NCBI GenBank assembly: GCA_001771185.1
Contig: METB01000001.1
Span: forward strand, 310,848-374,847
Direction: 5' to 3'
From: a candidate division Kazan bacterium RIFCSPHIGHO2_01_FULL_44_14
GTDB taxonomy: Bacteria > Patescibacteriota > Kazan-3B-28
Length of the DNA stretch: 64,000 bases
This document shows positions 17,866-37,693 of this stretch, piece by piece. The notes below the pieces were generated by a model. The model was not told the DNA's origin. It made no database searches and saw only the letters and a program-made list of their open reading frames with translations. A program made the position numbers and the translations under genes. The stretch's first letter is position 1. Every line of letters begins with the position of its first letter.

Positions 17866-20094
17866 CTATTGTACCGTAATCGTCCAACCAAACATCGGAC
17901 CAAACCAAGTCACATGTTCGGCTACAAACCGAAATTCTTCTTGATACGAACCGGGCTGACTGGGTGCTCGGACCATGAAGCTTAGAGTCAACTGTCCTCC
18001 AGGCGGAACTTTGACTCCAGCATTAATAATCCGATTGTTACTGATCCACGATAAGTATCGGAAGGGGCTGACTCGATCAAGCGGAGTAGCCGTTCCAATT
18101 CGAACTTCGCCCAACCGCTGGGTCCCAGCTCCTTGGGCCTGCCAAGTGGTTTGACCAAGATTAACCACCGTCACCGACAGTTGAGCGGTATCACCAGGAC
18201 GAAGCGTAACCGAACCGCTTTGATTAACAATAGTCAATTGATAATCGACTGGGTTACTGCTAACCGAGTTGAGATCGGTTTGGGTGGTCAGCCCATTAAC
18301 CGGCTCAACCGAAATGTCCCAATAAATTCCTAGATCATTTAACCAACTAGCATATTCAACTACCGGCCGAAAATATTCCCGATGGTGACCGACCTGGCTC
18401 GCTTTGATCGGAAAAGTGAACCGAACGGTCCCTCCGGGCAGAACTACATTGGGAGCCATGTAAGTAACTCGATTGGCTGACAGCCAGTCATCAGTTGTAA
18501 ATGAACTGATTCGATCCAATGGCCGATCAGTACCCAATTTGATGATGCCGTGTCCGTCCAAACTGGCTTGCGGGTCGCTGATCCACATCACATTGCCAGT
18601 ATTTTTTACTTCCACCCATAAATCTTGAGTCGCTCCCAAGACCAACCTGGGATAAGGACTCTGCCCAACCCATTTCATGGCATAAGTCGTTTTTGACGGA
18701 GCAGTAAATTGGATCGGAGCTTTGACGGTTAACGATGAATGAGTGGTATTGTTGGTGAAAGTTAATTCTCTGGATCCGGGGACAGTTGATGCAACTCGAA
18801 AAGAAATTTGACCCAATAGATTTGATTGGCCGAGTGACATTGTGCCAGTAGCCGATACGGGTTGTCCATTAATAAGAACATTAGAACCGTTGGCTCGGAC
18901 TAAGATTTCTTGGTTGGGCTTGGCATGCCCTACATCATCCCGCACCGTGACGGTGACAGTAGCAAAGTTCACTCCATCTGCCACTACCACACCGTTAGCG
19001 ATCGAAACATCTCCGCGTTCAGTTACCGAGTTAACCGCTAATAATTTGGGGATATTTAAAATACCAGCCCCGAAGGTGGTTTGACTACCGCTATTGATCA
19101 CATCACTACTGCCTTTGAGTGCACTTTCTAACACACTGGGGGATAGTCCGGAAAAGCGACCCAACATCAAGGCGGCAGCAGCGGTGACTTGAGCAGTAGC
19201 GAACGAAGTTCCGTCACCAATCATATAATCGCCGGTGGGGCCATTCACCAAACCAGCCATGGTGATGTCAGTCCCTGGCGCTGACAGATCGATACCTTCA
19301 CCCACACTTGCAAATGGCGGATGTTGGTCGTGAGCATCGACCGCAGTGACGGCGATGACATTAGGATAGGCGGCCGGGAAATAAACGGGTTTACCGCTCC
19401 GATTACCGACTGCGGCGATCATCGGAACTCCGCGATTGACCGAATAATTAACTGCGCTCGATAAAATTGCGCTGTCGCTAGCCGAACCAAAACTCATATT
19501 AATAATCGAAGCGCCATTGTCGACAGCATACCGAATGGCTTGGGCGATATCCTGAAAATCGCCGCCGCCATTATCATCAAGCGCCTTTAATATCATCAAC
19601 CTGGCGTTCCAATCAATCCCAGCAATTCCGGTACTATTATTGGTCTTGGCAGCAATGATACTAGCGATCCCGGTACCATGACCATTAGCATCAATGATGT
19701 TGTTGGTATCATTGAAAAAATTGTAGCCGTAGTAATCATCAGCATAGCCGTTGCCGTCATCGTCCTTGTTATTATTAGGAGTTTCACGTTGATTCACCCA
19801 CAACTTCCCAGCCAATTCAGGGTGGCTCAAATCAATTCCGGTATCGATCACTGCGATCACCAAATTGGTACCTTGGGTAATGTCCCAGGCGGCAGGAGCC
19901 CCAATTCGTTGAAGATACCACTGCTTGGAATAAAGTGGGTCGTTGGGCAACGACTGGATTGTCAACTGATGCTCGCTGACTGATTGGGTAATCCATCCGG
20001 CAATATGGATCGGCAAATCGGATTGGGCTAATACTGGCGAGACCCAACTTAGCGACAAAATAGTACTAAAGACAACTACGAGGAATTTACGCAT
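17866..20094 (-). CDS. Secreted subtilisin-like serine protease (S8) with tandem C-terminal Ig-like domains.
   Basis: It has a signal peptide and the catalytic triad contexts VIDTGIDLSHPEL (Asp), HGTGIASIIAA (His) and GTSFATAQVTAAAAL (Ser). Two ~110-aa C-terminal repeats (..LGTDRPLDRISSFTTDDWLSANRV.. and ..GTATPLDRVSPFRYLSWISNNRI..) resemble the N-terminus of the L,D-transpeptidase at 56363. Confidence 0.85.
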   Translation of the reverse strand: MRKFLVVVFSTILSLSWVSPVLAQSDLPIHIAGWITQSVSEHQLTIQSLPNDPLYSKQWYLQRIGAPAAWDITQGTNLVIAVIDTGIDLSHPELAGKLWVNQRETPNNNKDDDGNGYADDYYGYNFFNDTNNIIDANGHGTGIASIIAAKTNNSTGIAGIDWNARLMILKALDDNGGGDFQDIAQAIRYAVDNGASIINMSFGSASDSAILSSAVNYSVNRGVPMIAAVGNRSGKPVYFPAAYPNVIAVTAVDAHDQHPPFASVGEGIDLSAPGTDITMAGLVNGPTGDYMIGDGTSFATAQVTAAAALMLGRFSGLSPSVLESALKGSSDVINSGSQTTFGAGILNIPKLLAVNSVTERGDVSIANGVVVADGVNFATVTVTVRDDVGHAKPNQEILVRANGSNVLINGQPVSATGTMSLGQSNLLGQISFRVASTVPGSRELTFTNNTTHSSLTVKAPIQFTAPSKTTYAMKWVGQSPYPRLVLGATQDLWVEVKNTGNVMWISDPQASLDGHGIIKLGTDRPLDRISSFTTDDWLSANRVTYMAPNVVLPGGTVRFTFPIKASQVGHHREYFRPVVEYASWLNDLGIYWDISVEPVNGLTTQTDLNSVSSNPVDYQLTIVNQSGSVTLRPGDTAQLSVTVVNLGQTTWQAQGAGTQRLGEVRIGTATPLDRVSPFRYLSWISNNRIINAGVKVPPGGQLTLSFMVRAPSQPGSYQEEFRFVAEHVTWFGPMFGWTITVQ

Positions 20095-20182
20095 AGGTTT
20101 ATTCTATCATCTTAATACTCCGCCTGGTTTGACAGAACATTACCAGTTAAACTAGAATCAAGTACGTTGAGTTGGAATCTTA

Positions 20183-20307
20183 TGGGGACCCCGAAATGGT
20201 CTAGTTCCGATGAATAGAGGAACGAACATTTTGGGGAAGAGGAGCAACGCCGAGTCCTAATAGGTCAGTGAGTTTACCGAACTGACCGTTAAGACGAGGC
20301 CGTTGCG
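20183..20307. ncRNA. Copy 1 of a ~125-nt element predicted to fold into stem-loops (CCCCGAAAUG..GUUCC..GGAAC..CAUUUUGGGG, then GCAACG..GGUCAG..CUGACC..CGUUGC); candidate ncRNA or structured spacer.
   Basis: It is nearly identical to 30522-30645 and partly conserved at 30863-30940, where the substitutions are compensatory. It abuts a tRNA(-fragment) boundary. Confidence 0.45.
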
Positions 20308-20379
20308 TCTTGGGTCCGTAGCTCCAGCCCGCAAAGCTACGCTTAGCGTTGCTGGCGGGTAGTGGTAAAGCAATAAATT

Positions 20380-20628
20380 ATGCACTACACCTATGTTCTA
20401 CAATCAAAACTAGACGGACATCTCTATGTGGGATGTACTGCTAACTTGATGGCTCGTATAGAGACGCACAACTCTGGTGCGGTATCGTCTACCCGTTCGC
20501 GTAGACCCTTAGAACTGGTGTATTATGAGGCATGTTTGTCTGAAAAGCTGGCACATACTCGGGAACAACAATTAAAAACAGGGTTTGGTCGAGCTTATTT
20601 AAAGAGACGTCTTGGGTCCGTAGCTTAG
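20380..20628 (+). CDS. GIY-YIG domain protein (UPF0213/YhbQ-like small nuclease).
   Basis: It reads YTYVLQSKLDGHLYVGCTANLMARIETHN...RPLELVYYE...REQQLK, a GIY-YIG core of the right length. Its last codons and stop lie inside the tRNA-Lys gene. Confidence 0.7.
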   Translation: MHYTYVLQSKLDGHLYVGCTANLMARIETHNSGAVSSTRSRRPLELVYYEACLSEKLAHTREQQLKTGFGRAYLKRRLGSVA

Positions 20629-20687
20629 TGGTAAAGCAGTTGCCTTTTAAGCAATTGATGCAGGTCCGATTCCTGCCGGACCCACCA
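20614..20687 (+). tRNA. tRNA-Lys (anticodon TTT).
   Basis: The cloverleaf was read by eye: acceptor GGGTCCG/CGGACCC, D-arm GCTTAGTGGTAAAGC, anticodon loop CTTTTAA, T-arm CAGGTCCGATTCCTG, and an encoded CCA. A terminator hairpin follows. Confidence 0.8.
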
Positions 20688-20691
20688 AATA

Positions 20692-20718
20692 AAAATCCAC
20701 CGTCTGGTGGATTTTGTA
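20692..20718 (+). terminator. Rho-independent terminator after tRNA-Lys.
   Basis: It is the hairpin ATCCACCGTCTGGTGGAT followed by TTTGTATTT. Confidence 0.6.
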
Positions 20719-20787
20719 TTTGAGTGTGGTTCGGTACGGAATTGGACCTTTGGCGTCAGCCAATAGGTTCGTTCACAAAGCCACCTT

Positions 20788-21702
20788 CTACATCGTTGGT
20801 TGCCAGTGGGCTAATTTGTCCAACAAATTTTGCCGATCAAGTTCCTCGGCAACACTAGGCGGATTAACTTTGATCCGCTCATTTTGACTGGTCAAACCAA
20901 AGTCGAGCATAAATGAAATGGGAACCCCTTCAATCAAGTAAATATCAGTCACTTTAATCCGAGCCAATTGGAAAGTGCGTTTGTTAATCCAAACATCTGC
21001 TGTGTAAGTAGTCAGCGAGTCCAACCCAGTCGGAACAGGGGAACCGGTAATTTGGCTAATCCGAGTAAGCAAAGATCGCAGATTATCGCCCTGGAGTTTG
21101 CCTTGATAATGATATGACCGTTGACCAAAAGCGGTTTCGTCTGGGAATGTCTGGGTCGCTTCCAATAAAGTTGAATCGGCGATTACATCATGGATCATTA
21201 ATGATTGCTCGGAGGTCAGCCCGCCTGATGTCGGCAAAGTGCCTAATTTATTGCCGTCACTGTCCAAACTAGGTTGTTTGATCCGATACCAACGGCTGTC
21301 AGCGCCAAGTGATATTGGTAGCAAAGTCGGAAGATCTAAGTCGGTTAATTTGAAATAAGTGTAGTCGGACAACCCGATCAATTGACCAGTTAATTTAATA
21401 TTGCCCTGATCAGAGGTGGCCTGGACATCGGCCTGCAAAGAAAATTGAGGAGTGGCTGGATCCTCATTAATCACATCCCCAGTCAAATGAAGTTGCGCAC
21501 TAGTAATTCTCCCGCCTAAAGCACTTGGAAGATTACCGGTTAAATTAAGCGTGGCATCGTAATGAAAACTCTGCAGGTCGGATGACGCTTGAGTGAACCG
21601 CTGGATTACTTCATCGGCGCTCAAGGTCTTAATCGAACAACCAGATAATAGCAATCCAACTGTTAGTATTAACGCCCCCAATTGTCGTCCTGGTCTAGTC
21701 AT
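20788..21702 (-). CDS. Hypothetical lipoprotein.
   Basis: It has a lipobox (LLLSGC) after a signal peptide and no recognisable catalytic motif. Confidence 0.5.
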   Translation of the reverse strand: MTRPGRQLGALILTVGLLLSGCSIKTLSADEVIQRFTQASSDLQSFHYDATLNLTGNLPSALGGRITSAQLHLTGDVINEDPATPQFSLQADVQATSDQGNIKLTGQLIGLSDYTYFKLTDLDLPTLLPISLGADSRWYRIKQPSLDSDGNKLGTLPTSGGLTSEQSLMIHDVIADSTLLEATQTFPDETAFGQRSYHYQGKLQGDNLRSLLTRISQITGSPVPTGLDSLTTYTADVWINKRTFQLARIKVTDIYLIEGVPISFMLDFGLTSQNERIKVNPPSVAEELDRQNLLDKLAHWQPTM

Positions 21703-21767
21703 ATTTATTATTATACCAGGGTGGAGTCAGCCGGTGATGGCTGTATAATGGAGCAGGAGGTGGGTCA

Positions 21768-22301
21768 ATGAACCTGCGGCAAATCAGCAGTATGAAAGAG
21801 GTGCCGGTTTTGGATTTAGAGACCGGTGATTTGCTGGGCCACATTGCCAGTTGGGTAATTCACCCCCGTGACCAGCGGATTGCCGCTTGGCTTTTGGGTA
21901 GAAATAAATTATTCCAAGCCCCCCTGGCAGTGGTGACTGCCGACATCGCTGAATACGGCCCCCGCATGGTGGTAGTGCGTGACAGCCAAACCGTAATCCG
22001 CCCCGACGAGGTGGTGGGACTACCTGAATTAATTACCGCCAGAATGGTGGTAGTGGGATTCCAGGCCACCACCGTACAAGGTCGGGTACTTGGATCAGTC
22101 ACCGATCTGGTATTTGATACAATTAGCTCCCAGATTCAACAATATTACATTCGGCCACAGAGTATGGCTGGGTTTTTACAAAATGATTTGGTGTTACCAG
22201 CCAACCAAGTGACCCGGATCGAATCCAATCGAGTGGTATTTTCCGAAGGAGTCGAAGCCATTCCGATAGTCAACCCGCGGAAACAAGTTCAAACTGCTTA
22301 G
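21768..22301 (+). CDS. Hypothetical protein, possibly a tandem PRC-barrel domain.
   Basis: It is 177 aa with a weak PRC-barrel-like pattern; call is tentative. Confidence 0.3.
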   Translation: MNLRQISSMKEVPVLDLETGDLLGHIASWVIHPRDQRIAAWLLGRNKLFQAPLAVVTADIAEYGPRMVVVRDSQTVIRPDEVVGLPELITARMVVVGFQATTVQGRVLGSVTDLVFDTISSQIQQYYIRPQSMAGFLQNDLVLPANQVTRIESNRVVFSEGVEAIPIVNPRKQVQTA

Positions 22302-23002
22302 GTGATTTGAACGAAACCTAATTTTTGGAGTTCTTGCTTAACTTTGGAATAGTGAGGCAATTCTTGGAGTTTGGCAAACTCTTTTTTAACCACAATCGGC
22401 GAGAGTTTCTTGATTAGATTGGCGTGGGTTTTAATCGCCCTTAAAGTGGTGGGGTCGTATTTAAACCCAAGCAAATGCCGGAACCGAATGGCTCGGAGCA
22501 GACGGATTGGGTCTTCTTGGAATCGAATTGCCGGATCACCGATGACGCGAATGATTTTATTATTGATATCAGCCAAACCCCCGTGGTAATCGAAATATTT
22601 CCCTGACTTGGGATTTAAATAAATTGCATTGATAGTTAAATCGCGACGGGGAGCGTCTTCAGCAGCCACCGGTACAAATCGAATTGCATCTGGATAGCGT
22701 TTAACTTGTTCAAAATTGGTCCGATAAATATCCTGGCGAAAGGTAGCCACTTCATAAACCACATTATTGTAGCGAAACGACACCACCCCAAACCGTTCGT
22801 CCACCGAAGTCGGGATAATATGATTTTTTTTCAAAACACTAATCACTTGTTTAGGTTTAGCACTGGTAGCAATATCAACATCAAATCGATCTGACTCCAA
22901 TTTTAACAGCCGGTCCCGGACCTGATTCCCTACCAAATAAGCCGAGAACCCGGCATCCTGCAGCCAAAATACGGGAGTATTGATCTCTTGTCTACGCATC
23001 AA
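22298..23002 (-). CDS. cca: tRNA nucleotidyltransferase / poly(A) polymerase family (CCA-adding enzyme head domain).
   Basis: It reads GFSAYLVGNQVRDRLL..SDRFDVDIAT and RRDLTINAIY, the Pol-beta-like head of class II CCA enzymes. At 234 aa it is short. Confidence 0.7.
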   Translation of the reverse strand: MMRRQEINTPVFWLQDAGFSAYLVGNQVRDRLLKLESDRFDVDIATSAKPKQVISVLKKNHIIPTSVDERFGVVSFRYNNVVYEVATFRQDIYRTNFEQVKRYPDAIRFVPVAAEDAPRRDLTINAIYLNPKSGKYFDYHGGLADINNKIIRVIGDPAIRFQEDPIRLLRAIRFRHLLGFKYDPTTLRAIKTHANLIKKLSPIVVKKEFAKLQELPHYSKVKQELQKLGFVQIT

Positions 23003-23786
23003 CTGGAAGATGAAAAATATGACGAGCGTTCATTGTGGTTGTGTCTTCAACTTGTTTAATTGGTAGTCCCTTGAGTTCGGCGATTTGTTTGGCCACTTCA
23101 GCAACATGAACCGGCTCTGACCGCTGACCTTTTAACTGCCAGGGCGGGAGATAAGGGCAATCTGTCTCAATTATAATCCGCTCAAGAGGAATTATCTTAA
23201 CGGCCTCTTGAAGAGAATCGTTCTTAGGGTAGGTGATTAAATTGTTTAAACCAATATAAAAGCCCAGCTTCAGAAACTTTTGGACATAAGTCGGTCCGGC
23301 GGCAAAAGAATGGATTACCCCTGGCAACCGGCCATTCAGACGGGGAAGATACTCTTGTTCTAGAACGCTTAGAACTTCTGTATAGGCATCTCGACAATGC
23401 AAAACTACTGGCTTTTCAACCTGCACGGCCAAGTTGAGTTGGGCCCGAAAAGCCACTAATTGATTATCGTGGCTGGAAATACTCCGGAAATAATCCAGTC
23501 CAATTTCGCCAATGGCCACCACTTTTTGGCTCCGAGCCAAGTTCCGAATCTGCTCGGCAACTGACGAGAAGTTATCCGCGTAATGAGGATGAACACCTAC
23601 GGTAGTATAGATTTCCCGATAACGATGGGCTAAATTTACGGACTCCTGCGAGGTGGTCAGGTCGGTGCCAACATTAACTAGCATCACAACCCCTTGGGTG
23701 AACGCTCGTTCAATCACCGTCTCCATGTCTTGACGAAACTCGGGAAAATTGAGATGGGTATGCGTATCAATTAACGCCATAATCAC
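22992..23786 (-). CDS. tatD: TatD-family metal-dependent hydrolase (DNase).
   Basis: It has the N-terminal IDTHTHL motif and a TIM-barrel pattern, at a length of ~260 aa. Confidence 0.8.
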   Translation of the reverse strand: MIMALIDTHTHLNFPEFRQDMETVIERAFTQGVVMLVNVGTDLTTSQESVNLAHRYREIYTTVGVHPHYADNFSSVAEQIRNLARSQKVVAIGEIGLDYFRSISSHDNQLVAFRAQLNLAVQVEKPVVLHCRDAYTEVLSVLEQEYLPRLNGRLPGVIHSFAAGPTYVQKFLKLGFYIGLNNLITYPKNDSLQEAVKIIPLERIIIETDCPYLPPWQLKGQRSEPVHVAEVAKQIAELKGLPIKQVEDTTTMNARHIFHLPVDA

Positions 23787-24631
23787 TTGATCAAACTGAC
23801 CCAGACGACTAACCCGGCAATCACTACACTAGCAATTATATTTTTCATTCGCCACTGCTCATACAGAAATAGAACCGACAAGACATAAACTAGAATAGGG
23901 GAGAGGGTAAAAATAAAAATTGTTTCGCTGACACTCCGGGCGACAAAAGCCATGTAAGTGGCTGTCATGGAAGCAACTGCCAGAGCCCCAAGTATGCCAA
24001 AAATAGCCCAGTGGTGGGGCTTGATAATTTTAAAATTGGGCCAAGCCACCAATGATAAAGTTATTAGCACGAAACTTGAGCGAATTAGATAAAGGGCAAT
24101 CGGTTCGTAAACGGTGAGTAGGGTTTTCACGGCCGAGGCCTCCAACCCATAAATCAAAGAGAACCCAATAATCGCCATCAGACCACGAGTTAGGGTCAGT
24201 TTATGTTTATGCCAATGGCTCCAGACCAAGATAACACTAGCAATGGCGGCCGCAACATAGACCAACCAAATCCGTTCACTCGGATAAAACAAACCAGCAA
24301 TCAAAATTGCCACAAGCGGATTAAACAGCAAAAATGGTTCGACTTCAGAAATCTTTTCCCGCTCGATTGCCCAATAAAACAGTAAATTAGCAGCGGTAGC
24401 CAAAAGAATCACCCCGACCAGCAATTGCCAGACCGACTGCATCTGGGCGGGGGTTGGCCAATGCACAAAAAACGGGGCGGTCATCAGCAGTACAAATACG
24501 ATTCCGACAAATTGCAGCCAATTAAATTCCCGACTGGTCAACCGGCCATATCGGCGAAAAAAACTTTTGACGATGGTCATATACGACGCATCGGCCAATA
24601 CCGCGATAATGGGGAGAAGGATAACCGGCAT
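23783..24631 (-). CDS. DMT/EamA-family membrane transporter.
   Basis: It has ~10 predicted TM helices arranged as two EamA-like halves. Confidence 0.5.
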   Translation of the reverse strand: MPVILLPIIAVLADASYMTIVKSFFRRYGRLTSREFNWLQFVGIVFVLLMTAPFFVHWPTPAQMQSVWQLLVGVILLATAANLLFYWAIEREKISEVEPFLLFNPLVAILIAGLFYPSERIWLVYVAAAIASVILVWSHWHKHKLTLTRGLMAIIGFSLIYGLEASAVKTLLTVYEPIALYLIRSSFVLITLSLVAWPNFKIIKPHHWAIFGILGALAVASMTATYMAFVARSVSETIFIFTLSPILVYVLSVLFLYEQWRMKNIIASVVIAGLVVWVSLIK

Positions 24632-26137
24632 TTAATTTTGCTTAGGAAATAAAATTTCTGATTGGCCAAGTTGATGACCTTCAAGCAATCCGCCCCACTG
24701 GGTCTCTTTGACAAAATCGAAAGCATCTGGATTGATTGGTTCAAGCCCAAGTTGACGACGAATCCGGTCAGAGGTGGTGGGAAGAAAGGGATAAAGCATG
24801 ATACTGATTTGTCGCAAACTTTCAAGCATTTGGTATAAATCGTTGCCAACCGCATCGGGCTGGGTCTTAACCAGTTCCCACGGTTTAGTGGTATCAATAT
24901 ATTTGTTGCCTTCACTTACCATGGTCAACACGCTCTGAAGCGCAGCGTCTAACTCTAGCCCATCCATATGGTTTTGGTAGACACCCCATGATGGATTGAG
25001 CGAGACCGACGACACAGACGCCGGGACTTTATCGCCACAATATTTTTCAGCCATCATTAAGATCCGACTGACCAAATTACCTAAATCATTAGCCAACGCA
25101 GAATTATAAATTTCTTCAAATCGGATAGCAGAATAATCGCCATCACCCAGAGTGGGAATTTCTCGAAGTAGATAATACCGCACCGCATCTACCCCCCAAC
25201 GGTCGATTAACTCGACCGGATCCACAACATTGCCAAACGATTTACTCATTTTCTGACCATCAGACAAAATATGGCCGTGGACTAAGATTTGCTTTGGCAG
25301 AACCTCGCCAATGCTGGTTAGCATCGCTGGCCAGAACAGAGCATGGAACCGAAGGATGTCTTTCCCGATTACATGGACATCGGCCGGCCAGTATTTTTTA
25401 AATTTGGCCGGATTGTCAACATAGCCGATAGCGCTGATGTAATTAGTCAAAGCGTCGGGCCAGACATACATCACTTGTGAATCATCACCGGGCACTGGTA
25501 CACCCCAAGATAATTTTTCTTTGGGACGAGAAAAACTGATGTCGGTCAAACCGGCGTTTACAAAATTCAACATCTCTTTTACCCGATGAGTCGGCAAGAT
25601 GAAAGTGGGTTGCTCAAGAATCTTAGTTAATCGATCCTGATACTTCCCCAACTTGAACATATAGTTATCCTCCTCTAATTGGATAACCTTTTTATTGGCA
25701 TATTCGAGCGATTCGGCCTCGGTCTTGGTAATATAGGCCTCATCATTAACGCAATAATAGCCAGAGTAATGTCCCATTTCGATGTCGCCGTTGGCGACCA
25801 GTTTCTCCCAAACCCTTTGGGCCGTTGGCCAGTGACGCTTTTGATCTGTCGTCCGGATAAGGTCGGTATTGGAAATATTTAACCGCTGAATCAGGGTCTG
25901 GACTGATTCAGCCACTTCATCCACCCAGGTCTGCGGTGCCTTACCCTGCTCAATCGCTTTGTCATAAACCTTCACGCCGTGTTCATCGGTGCCAGTCAGG
26001 AAGTAGACATCATGGCCTTGTAACCGTTTCCACCGAGCGATAGCATCGGCTTGCAGCAATTCCAATGCAAACCCAATGTGGGGCTTAGCGTTGGAATAGA
26101 GAATGGAAGTAGTGATATAGAATTTTGGTTTGTCCAT
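24632..26137 (-). CDS. metG: Methionyl-tRNA synthetase (short form, no C-terminal tRNA-binding extension).
   Basis: It has the HIGH-region context SNAKPHIGFA, KMSKS (KMSKSFGN) and a MetRS Zn-knuckle-like region. Confidence 0.9.
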   Translation of the reverse strand: MDKPKFYITTSILYSNAKPHIGFALELLQADAIARWKRLQGHDVYFLTGTDEHGVKVYDKAIEQGKAPQTWVDEVAESVQTLIQRLNISNTDLIRTTDQKRHWPTAQRVWEKLVANGDIEMGHYSGYYCVNDEAYITKTEAESLEYANKKVIQLEEDNYMFKLGKYQDRLTKILEQPTFILPTHRVKEMLNFVNAGLTDISFSRPKEKLSWGVPVPGDDSQVMYVWPDALTNYISAIGYVDNPAKFKKYWPADVHVIGKDILRFHALFWPAMLTSIGEVLPKQILVHGHILSDGQKMSKSFGNVVDPVELIDRWGVDAVRYYLLREIPTLGDGDYSAIRFEEIYNSALANDLGNLVSRILMMAEKYCGDKVPASVSSVSLNPSWGVYQNHMDGLELDAALQSVLTMVSEGNKYIDTTKPWELVKTQPDAVGNDLYQMLESLRQISIMLYPFLPTTSDRIRRQLGLEPINPDAFDFVKETQWGGLLEGHQLGQSEILFPKQN

Positions 26138-26211
26138 AAAATCTGCTTCTAGGGCTAATTTTAATTCGTCCTCATTATATCGTAATCATCCATTTTGGGT
26201 ACAATAAGGAT

Positions 26212-26853
26212 ATGGTACAAGTGACTAAACTAAGTGTTCAGGTCCATAACCCCAACCGCGCCAATCTGTATGTGGACGGCAAATTTTATAAGGGCTTAGA
26301 CAAAATCGTGGCGGTCCGGCTGGGTCTAAGACCCGGTCTAACCCTAACTCCATTTTTAATTAGTCAGTTAGACCAACAACAGACCGCCAGCAGCGCCTGG
26401 GAGTTTGCCTTGCGCTCACTCCAACGCAGTCCCAAAAGTGTGAGCACTATGCGACGCAAACTGCAAGACAAGCTGTTCCCCGATGAGGTAGTCAATCAAA
26501 CAATCCAACGGCTAATCGATGGGAAAATTTTGGATGATGATTTGTTGGCTAATAATCTGGTGCGTTATTACAGCGCCAATGGCAAGCGCAGTCGTAAACA
26601 AATTTGGGCGTTACTCAAAACAAAACAGTTACCGACTTCGGTCATAAACGAGGCCTTGGCGAATATCGATGGGGGACAAGAATTTTTGGCCGCTCACAAA
26701 TTGGCCCAGCAAAAAAATCACCAGTGGCGAGAATTAGGATTCAAAGTCCGCCAACAAAAGATTGCTGGTTACTTAAACCAGCGAGGGTTCCAATACGCCG
26801 TAATCAAGCAAGTCATTGACCATAACCAACTAGATGCCGAGGAGTCGGCTTAA
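26212..26853 (+). CDS. recX: RecX-like regulatory protein.
   Basis: It shows the repeated three-helix RecX pattern (ALRSLQRSPKSVSTMRRKL..; ..LLANNLVRYYSANGKRSRKQIWALLKTKQL..). Confidence 0.6.
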   Translation: MVQVTKLSVQVHNPNRANLYVDGKFYKGLDKIVAVRLGLRPGLTLTPFLISQLDQQQTASSAWEFALRSLQRSPKSVSTMRRKLQDKLFPDEVVNQTIQRLIDGKILDDDLLANNLVRYYSANGKRSRKQIWALLKTKQLPTSVINEALANIDGGQEFLAAHKLAQQKNHQWRELGFKVRQQKIAGYLNQRGFQYAVIKQVIDHNQLDAEESA

Positions 26854-27084
26854 CCGGAGTTGATCAAAACCCACTACAACTTGTTCAGTCCCGTTGGCTA
26901 ATTTAATCACGCTAACTGGCACTGCCATCTGTTGGCTTTTTTGGACCATCTCTTTGCGAGCTTCCATGTCAGTCGCCACGTCTTTATTTTCAAAAGTCAC
27001 ACCATTAGTCGTTAGCCACTCTCTCAAGAGATGACAATAGTGGCAAGTGGGAGTGGAATAGATAGTAAAACCGGTAATTGGCAT
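26830..27084 (-). CDS. Glutaredoxin-like protein (NrdH / glutaredoxin family).
   Basis: It has a TPTCHYC CxxC motif in a thioredoxin-fold-sized 84-aa protein. Confidence 0.6.
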   Translation of the reverse strand: MPITGFTIYSTPTCHYCHLLREWLTTNGVTFENKDVATDMEARKEMVQKSQQMAVPVSVIKLANGTEQVVVGFDQLRLSRLLGI

Positions 27085-27165
27085 GGCAAAAAATTAATGG
27101 GATTATAATCCGACCATCATCGCATTTTGCGGGACCCCGCCATCGGCGGTGGCAAATCGGCTTAC

Positions 27166-28425
27166 TTAGTGTATCACGCCCCTTAGACGCATGGCGGTAA
27201 GAAGCCGAGTCGCTCCGACAATATAAGCCCCAGTCCGGAAATCCACATTGTGGGTGGCCGAGGCCTGCGCTACATCAGCAAAAGCCGTATATATAATTTG
27301 ACGAAGGCGGACTTGGATGTCACTTTCCGACCAATAGAAGTTTTGCTGATTTTGAACCCATTCGAAATAACTCACTACCACACCGCCGATATTGGCTAGA
27401 ATGTCCGGGACCACGACAATGTCTCGCTGACTCAATAGTTCATCGGCTTCAGAGGTGACTGGGTGGTTGGCTAGTTCCAAAACTATCTTGGCTTGAACTT
27501 CTTTCTGATTTACCGCTGTTACCTGATTTTCGAGTGCAGCCAACACCAAAATATCAACCGGTAAAGCCAGTAATTCCGAGTTGGTTAGATTGTGAGTATA
27601 CTCGGCGTTTTCAACCGAACCAGTTTTTTCTTTATGCTGAAGCACATCTAAAATGTCCAAACCGGTTTGATGATAAACCGCACTATGAGTATCACTAATC
27701 GCTATGACACGATACCGACTGTCTTCAGACAAAAGTCGAGCCAACCCACCACCCACATTGCCTACCCCCTGGATCGCTACAGTTAAGGGATGTTTTTTGA
27801 TGTTGAGATGATCCAATAACTTGTCCAAAACATATTTCCCGCCCAGCGAAGTAGCCGAGTTCCGACCTTGAGAACCAAACAAGCTTAAGGGTTTACCAGT
27901 GATTACTCCTGGGCTGCTAAAACCCACCATTCTCTCGTATTCATCCAACATCCATCCCATCGTGGCTGAATCCGTGTTTATATCCGGCGCTGGAATATCT
28001 CTGGTCGGACCAAGACATTGACCAAAAGCCCGAATGTAAGCCCGGGCGACCCGCTCTCGTTCGGTTGCGGAAAGAGTCCGACCATCGATTCGAACACCGC
28101 CCTTGGATCCGCCCAAAGGAATATTGGCAACTGCGGTTTTAAAGGCCATCAGTCCAGCCAGAGTAGTCACTTCGGCCAAGTCCACATCGGAGTGGAATCG
28201 AATACCGCCCTTATACGGACCGCGAGCGTTACTGTATTGAACTCGCCAGGCCGGCACGACGATGGTTTGGCCGTCATCCATATCGATTGACAGTTGGGCC
28301 GTGTAAGTATGATCGGGATGTAAAAAAAGTTGGCCAGTGGCATCGTTAACTGATAATAGTTTGAAGGCGGTTTGAGCGGCTGTCGGCAAAACAACTCCCA
28401 ATGGTGTTAGCATCACTTTAGGCAT
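27166..28425 (-). CDS. gdh: Glu/Leu/Phe/Val dehydrogenase family (glutamate dehydrogenase-like).
   Basis: It has the GPYKGGIRFH motif and a Rossmann GVGNVGG. Start is taken at an internal Met to avoid overlap with trxB; the ORF-track start is 28470. Confidence 0.8.
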   Translation of the reverse strand: MPKVMLTPLGVVLPTAAQTAFKLLSVNDATGQLFLHPDHTYTAQLSIDMDDGQTIVVPAWRVQYSNARGPYKGGIRFHSDVDLAEVTTLAGLMAFKTAVANIPLGGSKGGVRIDGRTLSATERERVARAYIRAFGQCLGPTRDIPAPDINTDSATMGWMLDEYERMVGFSSPGVITGKPLSLFGSQGRNSATSLGGKYVLDKLLDHLNIKKHPLTVAIQGVGNVGGGLARLLSEDSRYRVIAISDTHSAVYHQTGLDILDVLQHKEKTGSVENAEYTHNLTNSELLALPVDILVLAALENQVTAVNQKEVQAKIVLELANHPVTSEADELLSQRDIVVVPDILANIGGVVVSYFEWVQNQQNFYWSESDIQVRLRQIIYTAFADVAQASATHNVDFRTGAYIVGATRLLTAMRLRGVIH

Positions 28426-28435
28426 AACAAGTAGA

Positions 28436-29383
28436 TTATTTAATATATCCTTGATCGGCAAATCGGTCACCCGGATGGCGTCCTTGCAAATAATTGTAGG
28501 CGGCTAATGCGGCCTTGGCGCCCTCACCAGCCGAAATTACAGTTTGCTTAAACGGCACAATCGTTACATCACCGGCGGCGAATAGACCAGAACAACTGGT
28601 CTGATTGAAATTATCTACCATAATTTCTCCAGCATCATTTAATTGGACCAGGTCTTTCACGAAGTCGGTAAAGATTTGCTGACCGACTTCCACAAACACT
28701 CCTTCGACTGGCAACTCTTTTGGCCCGGTCGGAGTGATGACCCTCACGGCATTGACGAATTGATCACCCTTAATTTCCTGAACCGTGCTATTCAAAACTA
28801 GTTCAATTTTGGAATCGGCTTTAACTCGATCAATTAAAATCTCTTCGGCTCGAAACTCGTTGCGCCGATGAATCAGATAAATTTTACTAGCGATCTTAGA
28901 CAAAAGAATAACCGCATCCATAGCCGAGTTACCACCACCAACCACCGCTACCGTCTTGCCCTCAAATAGGGGAGCGTCACAAGTAGCACAATAAACTACA
29001 CCCTTGTTCATAAATTCGGTTTCTCCAGGGACATCCAAATGACGATGACTTTTGCCGAAAGCCAAGATTAGCGCCTTGGCATGATACTCCTCACCCAATT
29101 CACCGAGCAACACAAATCCATTCTCGGCTTTGTCAATTTTGGTTACTCCTTCCAATCTAATTTCGGCGCCAAATTTTTGGGCCTGCTTAGCAAACCGGCT
29201 CATCAAATCTGGTCCGGTTGAAAAGTCCACTCCGGGGTAATTTTCAATATCCATCGTGGTCGCGGTTTGGCCACCTAGATCCCGACTCAATACTAAAGTC
29301 GAGAGTTTGCGCCGAGTAGAGTAAAGTGCGGCGCTTAAACCAGCTGCCCCGGCCCCCACGATAATCACATCATAGTTTTTCAT
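28436..29383 (-). CDS. trxB: Thioredoxin-disulfide reductase.
   Basis: It has the FAD motif YDVIIVGAGAAGL, the redox-active CATCD, and the NADPH motif GGGNSA. Start is taken at MKNYDV; the ORF-track start is 29428. Confidence 0.9.
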   Translation of the reverse strand: MKNYDVIIVGAGAAGLSAALYSTRRKLSTLVLSRDLGGQTATTMDIENYPGVDFSTGPDLMSRFAKQAQKFGAEIRLEGVTKIDKAENGFVLLGELGEEYHAKALILAFGKSHRHLDVPGETEFMNKGVVYCATCDAPLFEGKTVAVVGGGNSAMDAVILLSKIASKIYLIHRRNEFRAEEILIDRVKADSKIELVLNSTVQEIKGDQFVNAVRVITPTGPKELPVEGVFVEVGQQIFTDFVKDLVQLNDAGEIMVDNFNQTSCSGLFAAGDVTIVPFKQTVISAGEGAKAALAAYNYLQGRHPGDRFADQGYIK

Positions 29384-29574
29384 CCCAGTAGAAGATTTTA
29401 GATGATAATACTCTTTCTGATTATGCAATCAAGTAGTACCGTTTGAACAGCAGATATTAAATATAACCTGTTAGTTGACCAAATACTTTGTATTATCAGC
29501 CTAATCAAATCTAAAATTCTCTACTGGGCATGGCCACCCCATTATAACAATGTCGGCAAATCCACAGACCAAAA

Positions 29575-29605
29575 GCCCTCCTGCTATACAGCAGGAGGGC
29601 TTTTG
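29575..29605. terminator. Bidirectional rho-independent terminator.
   Basis: The hairpin GCCCTCCTGCTATACAGCAGGAGGGC is flanked by A-runs and T-runs. It lies downstream of the acidic-protein gene on the minus strand. Confidence 0.7.
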
Positions 29606-29619
29606 AAAATAGACCTTAA

Positions 29620-29838
29620 TTAGAACTCTTCTTCGTCGCTTTCCTTTGTTTCTTCTTTATCTTTGTCTGTGTCAATGACTTCCTCTTCCTCATCATCATC
29701 GTCATCATCATCGTCTAAATCAATGTCGCTATCAGCATCACCATCGGCACCGATGACTGGCGGAGTGGCAACAACATCGTCATCGCTAAATTCAGGGTCC
29801 AGTCCATCATTAGTAATCTTAATGTCTTCGTCGTTCAT
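29620..29838 (-). CDS. Small, extremely acidic protein (72 aa, D/E-rich).
   Basis: It contains DLDDDDDDDDEEEEVIDTDKDKEETKESDEEEF and is followed by a strong terminator. Function is unknown. Confidence 0.45.
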   Translation of the reverse strand: MNDEDIKITNDGLDPEFSDDDVVATPPVIGADGDADSDIDLDDDDDDDDEEEEVIDTDKDKEETKESDEEEF

Positions 29839-30181
29839 AATATCTCTCTTTGATTTAAAATAATACTCAAACTTGGTTCGACCCTAAAGCGCTACTTCTC
29901 AAATTAGGAAGAGAGCGCATATTGCTTAATTTGCATACAATGCCGAGTTTATAGATACCTAAAATGGGTGTCAACAAGTTTTTTGACGTGGTAGCCCCAG
30001 CCCTCCTTTGCTCTGCTATGTAGCAGAACTTCGGATGAGCAGGCGGGAGTCCCGCCGACGTTATATTCTGCTGTACAGCAGAATATAACTTATGAGCGGA
30101 CCTTGCTCCCCCGATCCTTCGGCCGGGTCCTCTCTGTTACAACTACAAACAAAAACAAAGCCCTCTGGCTTCGTTTTCGTT

Positions 30182-30256
30182 TGGTAGCCCCAACGGGAGT
30201 CGGACCCGTCTTTTCAGATTGAAAATCTGACGTCCTAACCGATAGACGATGGGGCC
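30182..30256 (-). tRNA. tRNA-Glu (anticodon TTC).
   Basis: The cloverleaf was read on the reverse complement: D-arm GTCTATCGGTTAGGAC, anticodon stem TCAGA/TCTGA, loop TTTTCAA, and an encoded CCA. Confidence 0.7.
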
Positions 30257-30378
30257 AAGAACTACTGCGTAGTTAATATCCAATCACCAAATTTCAAATA
30301 ACAAAGGGGAGAGAAACAGATTCTAGGTTTTGTTTGATAATTGACTATTGGATATTGGTTATTACAGCGAAGCTGTTC

Positions 30379-30453
30379 TGGTGGGCGCAGAAGGATTCGG
30401 ACCTTCGGCCAATCGCTTAAGAGGCGACTGCTCTACCGCTGAGCTATGCGCCC
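30379..30453 (-). tRNA. tRNA-Lys (anticodon CTT).
   Basis: On the reverse complement: GGGCGCATAGCTCAGCGGTAGAGCAGTCGCCTCTTAAGCGAT..GAAGGTCCGAATCCTTCTGCGCCCACCA. Confidence 0.8.
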
Positions 30454-30521
30454 ACAAAAATGCTTCTTGCATTTTAATACTCAATAATCAAATTACAATA
30501 ATCAAATAATTTGTCTTTAGT

Positions 30522-30645
30522 GGGAACCCCGAAATGGTCTAGTTCCGATGAATAGAGGAACGAACATTTTGGGGAAGAGGAGCAACGCCGAGTCCTAATA
30601 GGTCAGTGAGTTTACCGAACTGACCGTTAAGACGAGGCCGTTGCG
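30522..30645. ncRNA. Copy 2 of the ~125-nt stem-loop element (between tRNA-Lys-CTT and tRNA-Arg-CCG).
   Basis: It is nearly identical to 20183-20307 and ends 6 nt from the tRNA-Arg(CCG) 3' end. Confidence 0.45.
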
Positions 30646-30651
30646 ACGAAG

Positions 30652-30727
30652 TGGCGCGCCCGAAGGGAGTCGAACCCCCGACCTTTGGAACCGGAATCCA
30701 ACGCTCTATCCACTGAGCTACGGGCGC
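30652..30727 (-). tRNA. tRNA-Arg (anticodon CCG).
   Basis: On the reverse complement: GCGCCCGTAGCTCAGTGGATAGAGCGTTGGATTCCGGTTCCAAAGGTCGGGGGTTCGACTCCCTTCGGGCGCGCCA. Confidence 0.8.
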
Positions 30728-30749
30728 ATGTTATCTGGATTGTCTGCAG

Positions 30750-30826
30750 TGGGGTGGGCGATGGGATTTGAACCCACGGTCACTCGGACCACAACCGAGA
30801 GCTTTAACCACTAAGCTACGCCCACC
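30750..30826 (-). tRNA. tRNA-His (anticodon GTG) with an encoded G-1.
   Basis: On the reverse complement: g-GTGGGCGTAGCTTAGTGGTTAAAGCTCTCGGTTGTGGTCCGAG..TTCAAATCCCATCGCCCACCCCA. The extra 5' G pairs with the discriminator C. Confidence 0.8.
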
Positions 30827-30862
30827 CCACTGCAGACAACTGTTCAACAAATTATTAAAGAA

Positions 30863-30940
30863 GGGGACCCCGAAATGGTCTAATTTCGATGAATAGAGGA
30901 ATGAACATTTTGGGGAAAGGAAAAATGCTGAGCCCCAGTA
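30863..30940. ncRNA. Copy 3 (partial, diverged) of the stem-loop element.
   Basis: The first hairpin is retained with compensatory changes (GUUCC/GGAAC becomes AUUUC/GGAAU). The second half is diverged. Confidence 0.4.
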
Positions 30941-31016
30941 ACCGTTCTGCTGTACAGCAGAACGCGCGTCAGATGATGAATATCGGCCATAGACCTCGCG
31001 TTGCCTTGGCGAAGTG

Positions 31017-31092
31017 TGGCGGCCCCGGGAGGAATCGAACCCCCAACCTTATCGTTAGAACCGATCTGCTCTATCCGTTGAGCTACGGGGCC
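31017..31092 (-). tRNA. tRNA-Arg (anticodon TCT).
   Basis: On the reverse complement: GGCCCCGTAGCTCAACGGATAGAGCAGATCGGTTCTAACGATAAGGTTGGGGGTTCGATTCCTCCCGGGGCCGCCA. Confidence 0.75.
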
Positions 31093-31596: not shown

Positions 31597-31846
31597 TGAT
31601 TTTCAATTGTCATCCCAACGCTTTTATAGCACTTCTAATAATTATAGCATAAAACTCCCTAACTGTCAAGTAGTAAAGAGTGGCTCCTGGACAATAAAAC
31701 TCTAATCAAAACAACAGATCAAACTGCTGTCTGTGATTTTGAGAGTGGCCCATGCTTCGCCCTGTGGGCTACCGCAGGGCAGTCTTCGCTTTCCATCTTA
31801 AAATCTTCCCTGGCGTAGCCAGGCGTAGCTTCAACGAAGCGAAGCC

Positions 31847-35838: not shown

Positions 35839-35977
35839 AAAAAATAGTTAATAGTGCTAAGTGATAAGTGGTGGAAAAAGATTTTTATATGTTTATTCTG
35901 CCGTCAGGCAGAGACCATAACTATTCACCGCAGGTCCCTCCGTAGTTCTGCTGTCTAGCAGAACGAAGGAGAACTTT

Positions 35978-37693
35978 TCACTCCAATATGGCTTTAATCC
36001 GTCTGACTCCCGCGCTGCTACTCTGCTCTTTTACGATTCTAAAAGTTCCTAACTCTTTACTGGTTTGAATATGTGGACCGCCGCAGAGTTCTTTGCTGAT
36101 AACTTCGCCCGTGGTTTCATTATATATCGTATAAACATCGACTTCGGCCGGATATTTTTCCTTGAAGAAAGCCAGCGCCCCGGCTTGGATCGCATCCGCA
36201 TACGGTAAAGTTTCTTTTTTTATCACAAAACCGGCTTGAATCTTTTGATTTACCCAATCCTCAATTCGTTTTAATTCATCTGGCTCAACTCGGCGGGGAA
36301 AAGCAAAATCGAACCGAGTCCGCTCCGAGTTAATATCCGAACCGCCTTGATGAATTTCCTCGCCCAAAATTTCCCTTAAGGCAGCGTGCAGCAAATGGGT
36401 GGCGGTATGCAGACGAGTAATGATTTGTTGGTCAGTTTCGCTTACGACCGCTCCAGCCGAGAGCCCATGTCCACCAAATTTTTCTTCTACTCCCGCCCTG
36501 GAAACGTCCTGGTGCTGGGCAAAGGCCGTTTCGAACTCGGCTTCATTAACTGGCACTTTCTCTTTTATAAAATCAATTGGCAAACCGTAACTGGCAAATA
36601 GGTTAAAGGCCTGTTGACCGGTTAATGCTTTGGGATGGGTCTGTAATAGTTTATCTAGTTCTTTAGAACCAAGTTCGAGGGTACGAATAAACTTGTCGGC
36701 CTCTTCGCGAGCAAACTGCGAGATTGCCTGATGTTCGGCTACCAGTTCGGGATAGACCGGGCCAAATAAATCAATAACCGTTTCGATTAATTCATCTAAC
36801 CTGACACCGCTACTATGAATATGCAACAGCACCCGGCGCAAAATCCGGCGGAGAATATATCCTTGCTCTTTGTTGGATGGCCGAACATAGTCAGCCAGCA
36901 AAAATACTACTCCGCGGATATGGTCGGCGACCACTCGTTGGGCCTTAACCGGTAAATTGGTGAGTTTGGCCATGATTGGCGCAAACACATCCGTCGCAAA
37001 AATAGTTTCCAACTGATTCACTGCCACCAACAGTCGTTCTAGCCCCATACCAGTATCCACGCCCTTGGTGGGGAGGGGAGTTAGCTCCTCATTGGAGTGG
37101 CAATAGAATTCATTGAATACTAAATTCCACACTTCCACTCCATCCACATAAAATTCGACTGTCGGACCGCAAGGACCCTCTGTGCCAGTCGGCCCCCAAA
37201 AATTATCAGTATCGGGTTGGGCCATAATCTTAGTTAGACCAGGCAGGGTTTCTAAAATCTGTTTAGCTTCAGTGTCTTCAGCCGTCCCAGTTCGATTACC
37301 ATTATAAAAAGTGGCGAATAGCCGGTTCTTGTCTATGTTGAGAAACTTTGGATCAGTTAAAAACTCCCAAGCATACTCAATCGCTTCTGGTTTAAAATAT
37401 CCGCCAAACGAAAAATTACCCAACATCTCAAAAAAAGTTAGGTGAGTGTCATCGCCAACTTCATCGATATCGGCGGTCCGAAAACATTTCTGAATCGAAA
37501 CTACATTTTGCGAACCAAAATCTTTTTCGGCCTCTTTTAGTCCAACAAAGTACGGTTTGAATTGCTGCATCCCGGCGGTTGTTAACAAAACCGAAGCATC
37601 GTCTTTGGGCAACAGCGAAGCCGAGAGCACTAACTTGTGTCCTTTGTTCTCGAAGAATTGGAGAAACTTTTGCCTTAACTCTAGATGATTCAT
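35978..37693 (-). CDS. alaS: Alanyl-tRNA synthetase, compact form (catalytic plus editing domains, no C-Ala domain).
   Basis: It has the class II motifs, the editing-site HTATHLLHAAL and CGGPH, and ends right after the editing domain. Confidence 0.85.
   Translation of the reverse strand: MNHLELRQKFLQFFENKGHKLVLSASLLPKDDASVLLTTAGMQQFKPYFVGLKEAEKDFGSQNVVSIQKCFRTADIDEVGDDTHLTFFEMLGNFSFGGYFKPEAIEYAWEFLTDPKFLNIDKNRLFATFYNGNRTGTAEDTEAKQILETLPGLTKIMAQPDTDNFWGPTGTEGPCGPTVEFYVDGVEVWNLVFNEFYCHSNEELTPLPTKGVDTGMGLERLLVAVNQLETIFATDVFAPIMAKLTNLPVKAQRVVADHIRGVVFLLADYVRPSNKEQGYILRRILRRVLLHIHSSGVRLDELIETVIDLFGPVYPELVAEHQAISQFAREEADKFIRTLELGSKELDKLLQTHPKALTGQQAFNLFASYGLPIDFIKEKVPVNEAEFETAFAQHQDVSRAGVEEKFGGHGLSAGAVVSETDQQIITRLHTATHLLHAALREILGEEIHQGGSDINSERTRFDFAFPRRVEPDELKRIEDWVNQKIQAGFVIKKETLPYADAIQAGALAFFKEKYPAEVDVYTIYNETTGEVISKELCGGPHIQTSKELGTFRIVKEQSSSAGVRRIKAILE

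Follow-up and report, generated by a model that had tools for sequence, protein, structure and literature searches.

A lineage-specific family of modular structured RNAs tied to the ends of tRNA genes is proposed here for the Kazan lineage, on the strength of an element, designated E, that occurs in three copies (E1, E2 and E3) within a 64,000-nucleotide (nt) stretch of DNA, hereafter the window, from candidate division Kazan bacterium RIFCSPHIGHO2_01_FULL_44_14 (contig METB01000001.1, positions 310,848 to 374,847), a groundwater organism of the candidate phyla radiation (CPR)/Patescibacteria. We hold this reading, with members of approximately 120-135 nt, to have about an even chance of being correct; the RNAs would probably be processed from tRNA transcripts and bound by protein. 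Many compensatory changes show the predicted fold to have been kept on the element's own strand, and selection at the RNA level is much more strongly supported than it was by the single change on which the original prediction, made from the window alone, had relied.

The claim that two of the copies are nearly identical was borne out by a repeat finder, which returned a 125-nt direct repeat of 99% identity (20183-20307 and 30521-30645) together with a three-copy family of 55 nt at 20184, 30522 and 30863 (95-100% identity), the third copy, at 30863-30917, being the 95% one. Within the window, diagnostic 13-15-mers of the element occurred at these three sites only. The architecture of E consists of a 5' GGGG, hairpin 1, a purine linker with AGGA, hairpin 2 and a GACGA tail. 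In E1, a 5' GGGGA leads into hairpin 1 (20189-20236), the unpaired linker AAGAGGA (20237-20243), hairpin 2 (20244-20306) and a tail GTCTT (20307-20311), which reads GACGA in other copies; this copy scored 167 bits and 131 bits in two covariance-model scans. A gap of 2 nt separates the GACGA tail of E2 (30645-30649) from the CCA end of the opposite-strand tRNA-Arg(CCG). The E1/E2 type of hairpin 1 is retained in E3 (30868-30915), with changes in the inner stem, and is followed by the linker AAAGGAA, whilst domain 2 belongs to another subfamily, its first part being homologous to domain 2 of the copy at locus L038; it carries the palindrome CTGCTGTACAGCAG (30947-30960), its 3' closing strand is disrupted, and its end lies 0 nt from the CCA end of tRNA-Arg(UCU). 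The third copy had originally been placed at 30863-30940 with hairpin 1 retained, which holds, but its end does not, since the diverged second domain reaches 31016.

Syntenic loci of relatives (numbered with the prefix L) were fetched through neighbouring proteins, and a 20-mer common to the window organism (lineage A), species B and L029 was used as a metagenome query, which yielded six loci. Species B comprises loci L011, L019 and L039 (76-80% protein identity to lineage A at L011 and L019), and GWA1 is candidate division Kazan bacterium GW2011_GWA1_50_15, whose complete 0.6-Mb genome is syntenic with the window; the neighbouring protein of 304 amino acids is 58% identical to a GWA1 protein. 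Where copies of different origin are compared, the prefixes A_, B_ and GWA1_ give the lineage. An assembly artefact was rejected, since the same copies are found in independent assemblies from several samples; the GIY-YIG protein encoded beside E1 and its flanking genes are identical on groundwater metagenome scaffolds.

A covariance model, which had been put forward as a check, was built from six full copies and run on the window and the loci of relatives, where it recovered diverged members. Its matches included window E3, copies in the alaS-pilM spacers of L013 and L017, a species B copy beside the remnant of a tRNA-Gly 3' end (L011:1751-1870) and a GWA1 copy abutting tRNA-Arg(CCG) (L024:972-1075). 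The last of these is a diverged orthologue of E2, for which closer orthologues are present in species B (L011:3012-3145 and L039). A second, broader model retrieved an E1 orthologue in L029 (103 bits) directly 5' of tRNA-Lys(UUU), where the neighbouring protein is only 42% identical, and a further sense copy in L029, termed E5, that fills the spacer from tRNA-Lys(CUU) to tRNA-Glu and ends at the +1 of tRNA-Glu. The same model gave a weak match to the GWA1 tRNA-Lys(UUU) leader (19 bits, E = 0.016), the third-best in 52 kb, at the expected place and on the expected strand. Locus L036 has a tRNA array in which three spacers in a row are filled by one copy each, convergent with the 3' ends of the tRNAs for Phe, Gly-GCC and Cys, and the copy of L038 abuts a tRNA-like 3' end. 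Altogether 19 members were assembled from at least six Kazan lineages (A, B, GWA1, L029, L036, L038, L034, L013 and L017).

Folding of the E1 + strand gave the two hairpins that had been predicted, at -55.7 kcal/mol (z = -6.3; 0/200 dinucleotide shuffles as good), with a terminal loop of hairpin 1 that measures 10 nt (GAUGAAUAGA) and not the 11 nt first given; the complement folds at -47.0 kcal/mol (z = -5.5). A sequence-only MAFFT alignment of domain 2 has changes on both sides at 13/23 pairs, and 90.9% of its cells are paired versus 24-44% with slid partners, values reached by 0/500 shuffles. When all 19 members were aligned by fitting to the model, a procedure that leans towards structure, both sides changed at 30/35 pairs and 94.6% of cells were paired versus at most 45% when slid. 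Hairpin 1 is built from entirely different sequences in B_E4, L029 E5, L036b, L036c and GWA1. Outside the stems, the linker A-AGGA is invariant and unpaired in 11/11 MAFFT-aligned members, domain 1 keeps a CUA/GAA internal loop, domain 2 keeps a tandem GA/GA internal loop, and the tail is GACGA. The 19 members from at least six lineages and the 30 covarying pairs thus support both RNA-structural selection and the linkage of the family to tRNA genes, as the original prediction had supposed, and provide the copies in relatives and the further covariation on which it depended. The change it had singled out, from GTTCC/GGAAC to ATTTC/GGAAT in the inner stem of E3 (G-C to A-U and C-G to U.G), is present as described, and a strain contig carries the G.U intermediate GTTCC/GGAAT (L006:1985); it lies, however, in a decaying mosaic copy, and the real evidence is that from other genomes.

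The feature that is constant across contexts is a 3' tail facing the end of a tRNA gene. Beside a same-strand tRNA, GACGA is followed directly by +1 (E1 of A, B, L029 and GWA1, and L029 E5), the cassette found at this point in the window being a later insertion. Beside an opposite-strand tRNA, 0-4 nt separate the tail from the TGG that is complementary to CCA (A_E2, A_E3, B_E2, B_E4, GWA1_E2, the three L036 copies and L038). The exception is formed by the alaS-pilM copies of L013 and L017, in which GACGAT precedes the ATG of pilM and no tRNA is adjacent. An orientation fixed relative to replication was rejected, since L029 has two opposite copies within 10 kb. Cloverleaf folds are also adopted by the mirror strands of tRNA-Arg(CCG), tRNA-Arg(UCU) and tRNA-His, and joining these to E leaves the fold of E intact.

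Seven tRNAs were called in the window with ARAGORN and Rfam, of which tRNA-Lys(UUU) is on the + strand and those for Glu, Lys(CUU), Arg(CCG), His, Arg(UCU) and Gly are all on the - strand (Table 1). E2 and E3 are antisense to every surrounding tRNA, an orientation that the original prediction had missed, and they can therefore not be ordinary spacers processed from tRNA operons in the folded sense. The position expected of a tRNA leader or spacer RNA (external or internal transcribed spacer, ETS/ITS) is taken up by E1, which lies between promoter and tRNA on the transcribed strand, and likewise by the E1 orthologues and L029 E5, but not by E2 and E3.

Table 1. Positions and strands of the element copies and of neighbouring features in the window.
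Feature	Position	Strand	Basis or remark
Sigma-70-type promoter TTGACA-18-TAGAAT	20129..20158	+	11/12 consensus matches; predicted to drive the E1/tRNA-Lys(UUU) transcript
E1, full element, 5' leader of tRNA-Lys(UUU)	20184..20311	+	Repeat, fold, covariance model
Insertion between E1 and its tRNA	20312..20628	+	Absent in species B
tRNA-Lys(UUU), gene into which E1 leads	20614..20687	+	ARAGORN/Rfam
tRNA-Lys(CUU)	30379..30453	-	ARAGORN/Rfam
E2, full element, 99% identical to E1	30522..30649	+	Repeat finder, covariance model
tRNA-Arg(CCG), 3' end abuts E2 tail	30652..30727	-	ARAGORN/Rfam
tRNA-His	30750..30825	-	ARAGORN/Rfam
E3, mosaic, partly decayed copy	30863..31016	+	Repeat finder; covariance model 62.8 bits over 30858-30954
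tRNA-Arg(UCU), 3' end abuts E3	31017..31092	-	ARAGORN/Rfam

The promoter ahead of E1 was also found upstream of tRNA-Lys(UUU) in species B, GWA1, L026 and L029, and E1 is thereby shown to lie inside the predicted tRNA-Lys(UUU) transcription unit, between the conserved promoter and the +1 of the tRNA. Orthologues of E1 stand directly 5' of an intact tRNA-Lys(UUU) in L019 and L029, whilst in L026, which is devoid of the element, 12 nt separate this promoter from a 22-nt partial copy of the tRNA-Lys 5' end, and the complete gene lies 16 nt beyond that copy. In the window, E1 is separated from its tRNA by a duplicated, split tRNA-Lys 5' end (20312-20372) that contains a 36-nt hairpin insert, and by an open reading frame (ORF) for an 82-amino-acid GIY-YIG protein (20380-20628), the stop codon of which falls inside the D-loop of the real tRNA-Lys(UUU). 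Because species B has the promoter, E1, GACGA and then directly an intact tRNA-Lys(UUU), with no GIY-YIG gene, the cassette is regarded as a later insertion. The GIY-YIG unit is a tandem duplicate in L001/L002 (9620-10250), is also present at L003 and is partly deleted in another strain.

Between species A and B, E1 with its promoter is 95-97% identical and E2 88-96%, whilst coding DNA is 65-90% and other spacers are 20-55% identical, a pattern which indicates selective constraint on E1 and E2 relative to the surrounding DNA. Within lineage A, E1 and E2 agree at 124/125 positions, yet each differs from its species B orthologue at 5-10; both lineages have substitutions of their own that are common to their E1 and E2, and the E2 of L039 carries the loop of B_E1. 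These patterns show that copies within a genome have been homogenized by gene conversion and evolve in concert, and that modules have been swapped between copies. The palindrome CTGCTGTACAGCAG replaces the inner hairpin of domain 1 in L029 and the apex of domain 2 in E3 and L038, and the hairpins being exchangeable in this way, the element is modular. At the E3 site of species B the copy is almost gone, with only GGGGACCCCG retained.

The copies also appear to recombine. For instance, the left flank of E2 is joined to the right flank of E1 in L004 (955-1113), and the left flank of E3 to the right flank of E1 in L006 (1960-2121), where the element itself is a sequence hybrid. Such junctions are those expected from recombination between direct copies, or could represent assembly chimeras through the repeat; in the former case, the product could be a circle or a tandem duplication of a 10.3-10.7-kb segment with metG, recX, gdh and trxB.

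Two further observations concern the palindrome and the number of copies in the window. A REP-like palindrome of the form CTGCT(G/A)TNNAGCAG occupies eight window loci in intergenic spacers (2650, 29581, 30013, 30068, 30947, 35948, 63521 and 63618) versus 0.08 expected, and a 69-nt inverted repeat (2629-2697 and 35914-35982) coincides with palindrome loci. A possible decayed fourth copy, at approximately 31724-31846 (with GTGATTTTGAGAGTGG and, at its end, CGAAGCC followed by TGG), is directly adjacent to tRNA-Gly(UCC) at its 3' end; the window sequence does not reach the model threshold, and a scoring copy occupies this site in species B and GWA1.

In the reading that we favour, in which the mechanism for E1 is reasonably clear, transcription from the sigma-70 promoter would yield E1 as a 5' leader on pre-tRNA-Lys(UUU), and cleavage by RNase P at G+1 would release it as a stable structured RNA of approximately 150 nt, a release that may equally apply to the tRNA-Lys(CUU)-E-tRNA-Glu spacer of L029. 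The single-stranded AGGA and the GA/GA loop would provide a surface for binding protein or RNA, and would constitute the functional part. E2 and E3 would be paralogous copies beside tRNA 3' ends, acting from an antisense transcript with a 3' end possibly set by a cloverleaf-shaped mirror tRNA, or may alternatively be reservoir or decaying copies. For the antisense copies in general, three readings remain, namely antisense transcripts with mirror-tRNA ends, trailers on the tRNA strand, and selfish or reservoir copies kept by gene conversion.

That the element's own strand is the functional one is suggested by the distribution of wobble cells (52 G.U versus 14 A.C), by a lower minimum free energy of the element-sense strand in 17/20 distinct copies folded both ways, an asymmetry which is about half compositional (shuffle means of the two strands are 4.8 kcal/mol apart), and by the substitutions between A and B in stems, all but one of which keep pairing on that strand. 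Several points besides this compositional share weigh against the favoured reading. Among convergent, independently evolving copies, G.U cells outnumber A.C cells by only about 2 to 1, and the alignments with the strongest covariation were those drawn towards structure by the model. Most copies are antisense to the adjacent tRNAs (E2, E3, B_E4, the three L036 copies, L038 and GWA1_E2) and those of L036 have hardly any space for a promoter of their own, so that a sense-strand RNA from such copies remains putative. No partner protein was identified, and the DNA examined contained no CsrA-like ORF. Finally, the element was not found in L026, L030, L031 or L033, nor in the tRNA cluster of L013, and this patchy distribution, like the swapping of modules, fits a selfish element equally well.

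Such an element, a non-autonomous mobile or recombining DNA repeat of the kind of repetitive extragenic palindromes (REP) and their mosaics (BIME), BOX, ERIC or miniature inverted-repeat transposable elements (MITEs), is the main rival, possible in our judgement and still rather unlikely. It would gather at tRNA genes because a compact genome of approximately 0.6 Mb would offer no other sites that tolerate it or are targeted, and its strand-specific hairpins would be kept for a single-stranded DNA (or RNA) mobilization intermediate and not for the host. Its presence in A, B, L029, L034, L036, L038 and GWA1 and its absence from the four loci just named would then reflect mobility. L029 E1 is, moreover, far closer to A than GWA1 E1 is, though GWA1 is nearer by protein identity, and the E of L034 lies within a 215-nt insert bounded by an 18-nt direct repeat of the tRNA-Gly(CCC) 3' end. 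The occurrence of both orientations relative to tRNAs, the substitution of a REP-like palindrome of the genome for hairpin 1 or for the apical part of hairpin 2, and the decay of E3 and B_E3 point the same way. A MITE that targets tRNAs, as had been suggested, is nonetheless not supported, in that the ends of the element (GGGGACCCC and CGTTGCGACGA) are not complementary and all inverted repeats are those of internal hairpins, and no target-site duplication was found in the flanks of E1, E2, E3 or the L011, L029, L036 and L038 copies; the repeat in L034 is the only flanking duplication and bounds a larger insert. No transposase, RAYT or TnpB was present among the annotated genes of the window and the fetched loci, nor an OrfB/TnpB domain among the window ORFs scanned. 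The left flanks differ between copies (CTTAT, TTTAGT, AAGAA, ATTA, AAACT, CAACT and AATGG), with no conserved target, and an IS200/IS605-derived palindrome-associated transposable element or a TnpB omega RNA was rejected on the same grounds. It also counts against a selfish repeat that E1, E2 and E4 occupy orthologous sites across lineages with 58-80% protein identity, and that mobilization by hairpins alone does not require the invariance seen in the unpaired linker and internal loops.

The comparison with REP, BIME and REPIN sequences, ERIC, pneumococcal BOX and the Neisseria Correia elements remains instructive. E shares with them short, intergenic, non-coding, repeated and mosaic hairpin sequences, concerted evolution, both orientations and a role as recombination substrate. 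It differs in having few copies per region, in its precise setting at tRNA ends, in the invariance of the AGGA linker and GA/GA loop, and in being without a GTAG-type 5' motif, terminal inverted repeats or target duplication; at 130 nt it is distinct from the over-represented palindrome CTGCTGTACAGCAG, which is a separate sequence embedded in some copies.

A second alternative, which we consider doubtful, takes the tRNA-sense strand as the functional one, the reverse complement of E being a 3' trailer or inter-tRNA spacer in which strong hairpins just after the CCA precede a C/U-rich tract complementary to the AGGAG linker, and serving as a terminator, an exonuclease block or a platform for processing of polycistronic precursors. 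Most copies indeed lie 0-4 nt after a tRNA 3' end on the tRNA strand and fill spacers of co-directional arrays (L036; window E2 and E3), a strand whose transcription is certain in every array that forms an operon; good folding of the reverse complement (see above) and simple hairpins at this position in relatives that lack E (L013) also speak for this view. The orientation relative to transcription is, however, the opposite one in E1 with its orthologues, in L029 E5 and in the alaS-pilM copies, the wobble pairs favour the other strand, and the bias from transcription-coupled C-to-T change would be expected to give the opposite asymmetry. As to termination, no U-tract follows the hairpins, whereas canonical U-run terminators exist in the same region. 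An intrinsic terminator was rejected, the scan finding none in E on either strand and the reverse complement containing only a C/U-rich tract (UCCUCUUCCCC).

That E spreads via RNA, by tRNA-primed reverse transcription or by template switching from a tRNA 5' end to the 3' end of E, and subsequent recombination into a tRNA gene in the manner of a bacterial short interspersed nuclear element (SINE), is extremely unlikely in our view: the junction of every sense copy is precisely at +1 (GACGA|G), the convergent junctions lie at TGG with 0-4 variable nt, and these positions are defined only at the RNA level, but no reverse transcriptase was seen in any fetched locus, a compact spacer together with selection for RNase P processing could yield the same junctions, and the alaS-pilM copies are not beside a tRNA. 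Retroplasmids of Neurospora mitochondria do integrate at tRNA genes via hybrid cDNAs. In its boldest form, as a SINE-like element copied through RNA, joined to mature tRNA termini and fixed at tRNA genes by recombination, the proposal strikes us as very improbable; such joining would account for a 3' tail that meets +1 or CCA whichever way the element is oriented. More mildly, E would be a new class of protein-binding non-coding RNA whose 3' end is made by RNase P on a tRNA or mirror tRNA.

Searches for known families returned no credible match. At the gathering threshold, Rfam 15 reported only tRNAs in the whole window, and at E <= 10 over 20050-20750 the sole match on E was the archaeal C/D small RNA sR2 (12 bits, E = 5.3), which is noise. 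No match was obtained by pattern scan of viral contigs, with two patterns in GTDB representative genomes, by BLASTN with E1 in phage and plasmid collections, or in metagenomes with a pattern based on an A-specific loop that later proved variable, and no description of the element was found in the literature searched. A hammerhead or HDV-like ribozyme was rejected, as there is no Rfam match and core nucleotides of loop 1 vary between species, the hammerhead-like CCGAUGA being GACAAAC in species B; a hairpin-ribozyme reading of the GUCUA/GAA motif likewise varies or does not fit. A group I intron or T-box was dismissed for want of RF00028 and RF00230 matches, E moreover being outside the tRNA and, at 130 nt, too short for a group I intron, and the consensus of integron attC sites and of K-turns is not present. 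A small ORF after the AGGAG linker has no start codon in A or B, and the AUGs of E3 and GWA1 belong to a covarying stem. A CsrA sponge was discarded, since besides the lack of a CsrA-like ORF in the DNA examined the GGA motifs of the loops are not conserved. Also discarded was a trans processing duplex between the E1 leader and the complement of E2, which are complementary in A, have approximately nine mismatches in B and form no such duplex in GWA1 and L036, where the copies differ.

Nearer parallels are found among RNAs linked to tRNA transcripts. The 3'ETS of leuZ in Escherichia coli is an example of a small RNA (sRNA) or sponge derived from a tRNA precursor spacer. E1 and L029 E5 resemble these sRNAs in lying inside a predicted tRNA transcription unit, from which release by tRNA-processing nucleases would follow, whilst E differs as a repeated, mostly antisense, covarying two-hairpin family of approximately 130 nt, known here from sequence alone. 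General background on sRNAs and sponges from tRNA precursor spacers is given elsewhere (PMC8166272). Formation of 3' ends by tRNA-like structures is exemplified by MALAT1-mascRNA, by tRNA-snoRNA dicistrons of plants and by the tRNA-miRNA units of MHV68. E similarly would have a structured RNA directly 5' of a tRNA or tRNA-like element with a 3' end set by RNase P, but those systems are eukaryotic or viral, whereas E is bacterial and involves genuine tRNA genes or their mirror strand, with processing that is predicted. Self-cleaving ribozymes, both hammerhead and HDV-like theta ribozymes, occur beside phage tRNAs. Whilst they too are small structured RNAs that abut a tRNA end, no Rfam ribozyme model matches E even at E <= 10. 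Overall, E1 acts most like an ETS/ITS-type RNA and E as a genomic entity resembles the REP/BOX/ERIC mosaics, and E is a member of neither as defined.

Other features were noted at the tRNA genes of this clade. Partial duplicates of tRNA ends lie beside intact genes in the window (approximately 29987-30000) and at L011 (approximately 1726-1751), L034 (8047-8064), L026 (4540-4760) and L024 (1590-1660); these 3' or 5' duplicates concern the tRNAs for Glu, Gly, Gly-CCC, Lys-UUU and Lys-CUU, and look like footprints of repeated insertion at tRNA genes in the clade. A second conserved non-coding family, with the motifs GCATAGGTTCG, GAGACCGCTTTATA, GGGGCCCCACAG and GTGGGGATACAC in that order, is found just 3' of tRNA genes at L019 (1820-2090), L006 (2490-2680), L024 (10940-11060), L029 (100-240 and 10930-11090) and L036 (890-1035), and its members often terminate with a duplicated tRNA 3' end able to form a minihelix like an acceptor/T-arm; no window copy was noticed, the window not having been specifically searched for that family. 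ORFs are also interposed between tRNAs of the same cluster, namely a LAGLIDADG ORF between tRNA-Arg(UCU) and tRNA-His in L013 (11989-12438), and an MGMT-like (PF01035) ORF in GWA1 (L024 1143-1559) and L029 (959-1372).

The genomes of CPR/Patescibacteria are tiny and contain very little non-coding DNA, and to our knowledge almost no regulatory RNAs have been described from them. A covarying module of approximately 130 nt that is set at tRNA ends, evolves in concert and apparently mediates rearrangements would add to both topics. Rfam has no entry for this family, which has now become amenable to modelling and to searches. If E is a selfish element, it would represent a repeat that targets tRNA termini with unusual precision; if it is a functional RNA, it would reveal an unknown layer of tRNA-linked RNA biology, in the form of leader-derived RNA or antisense control of tRNA operons.

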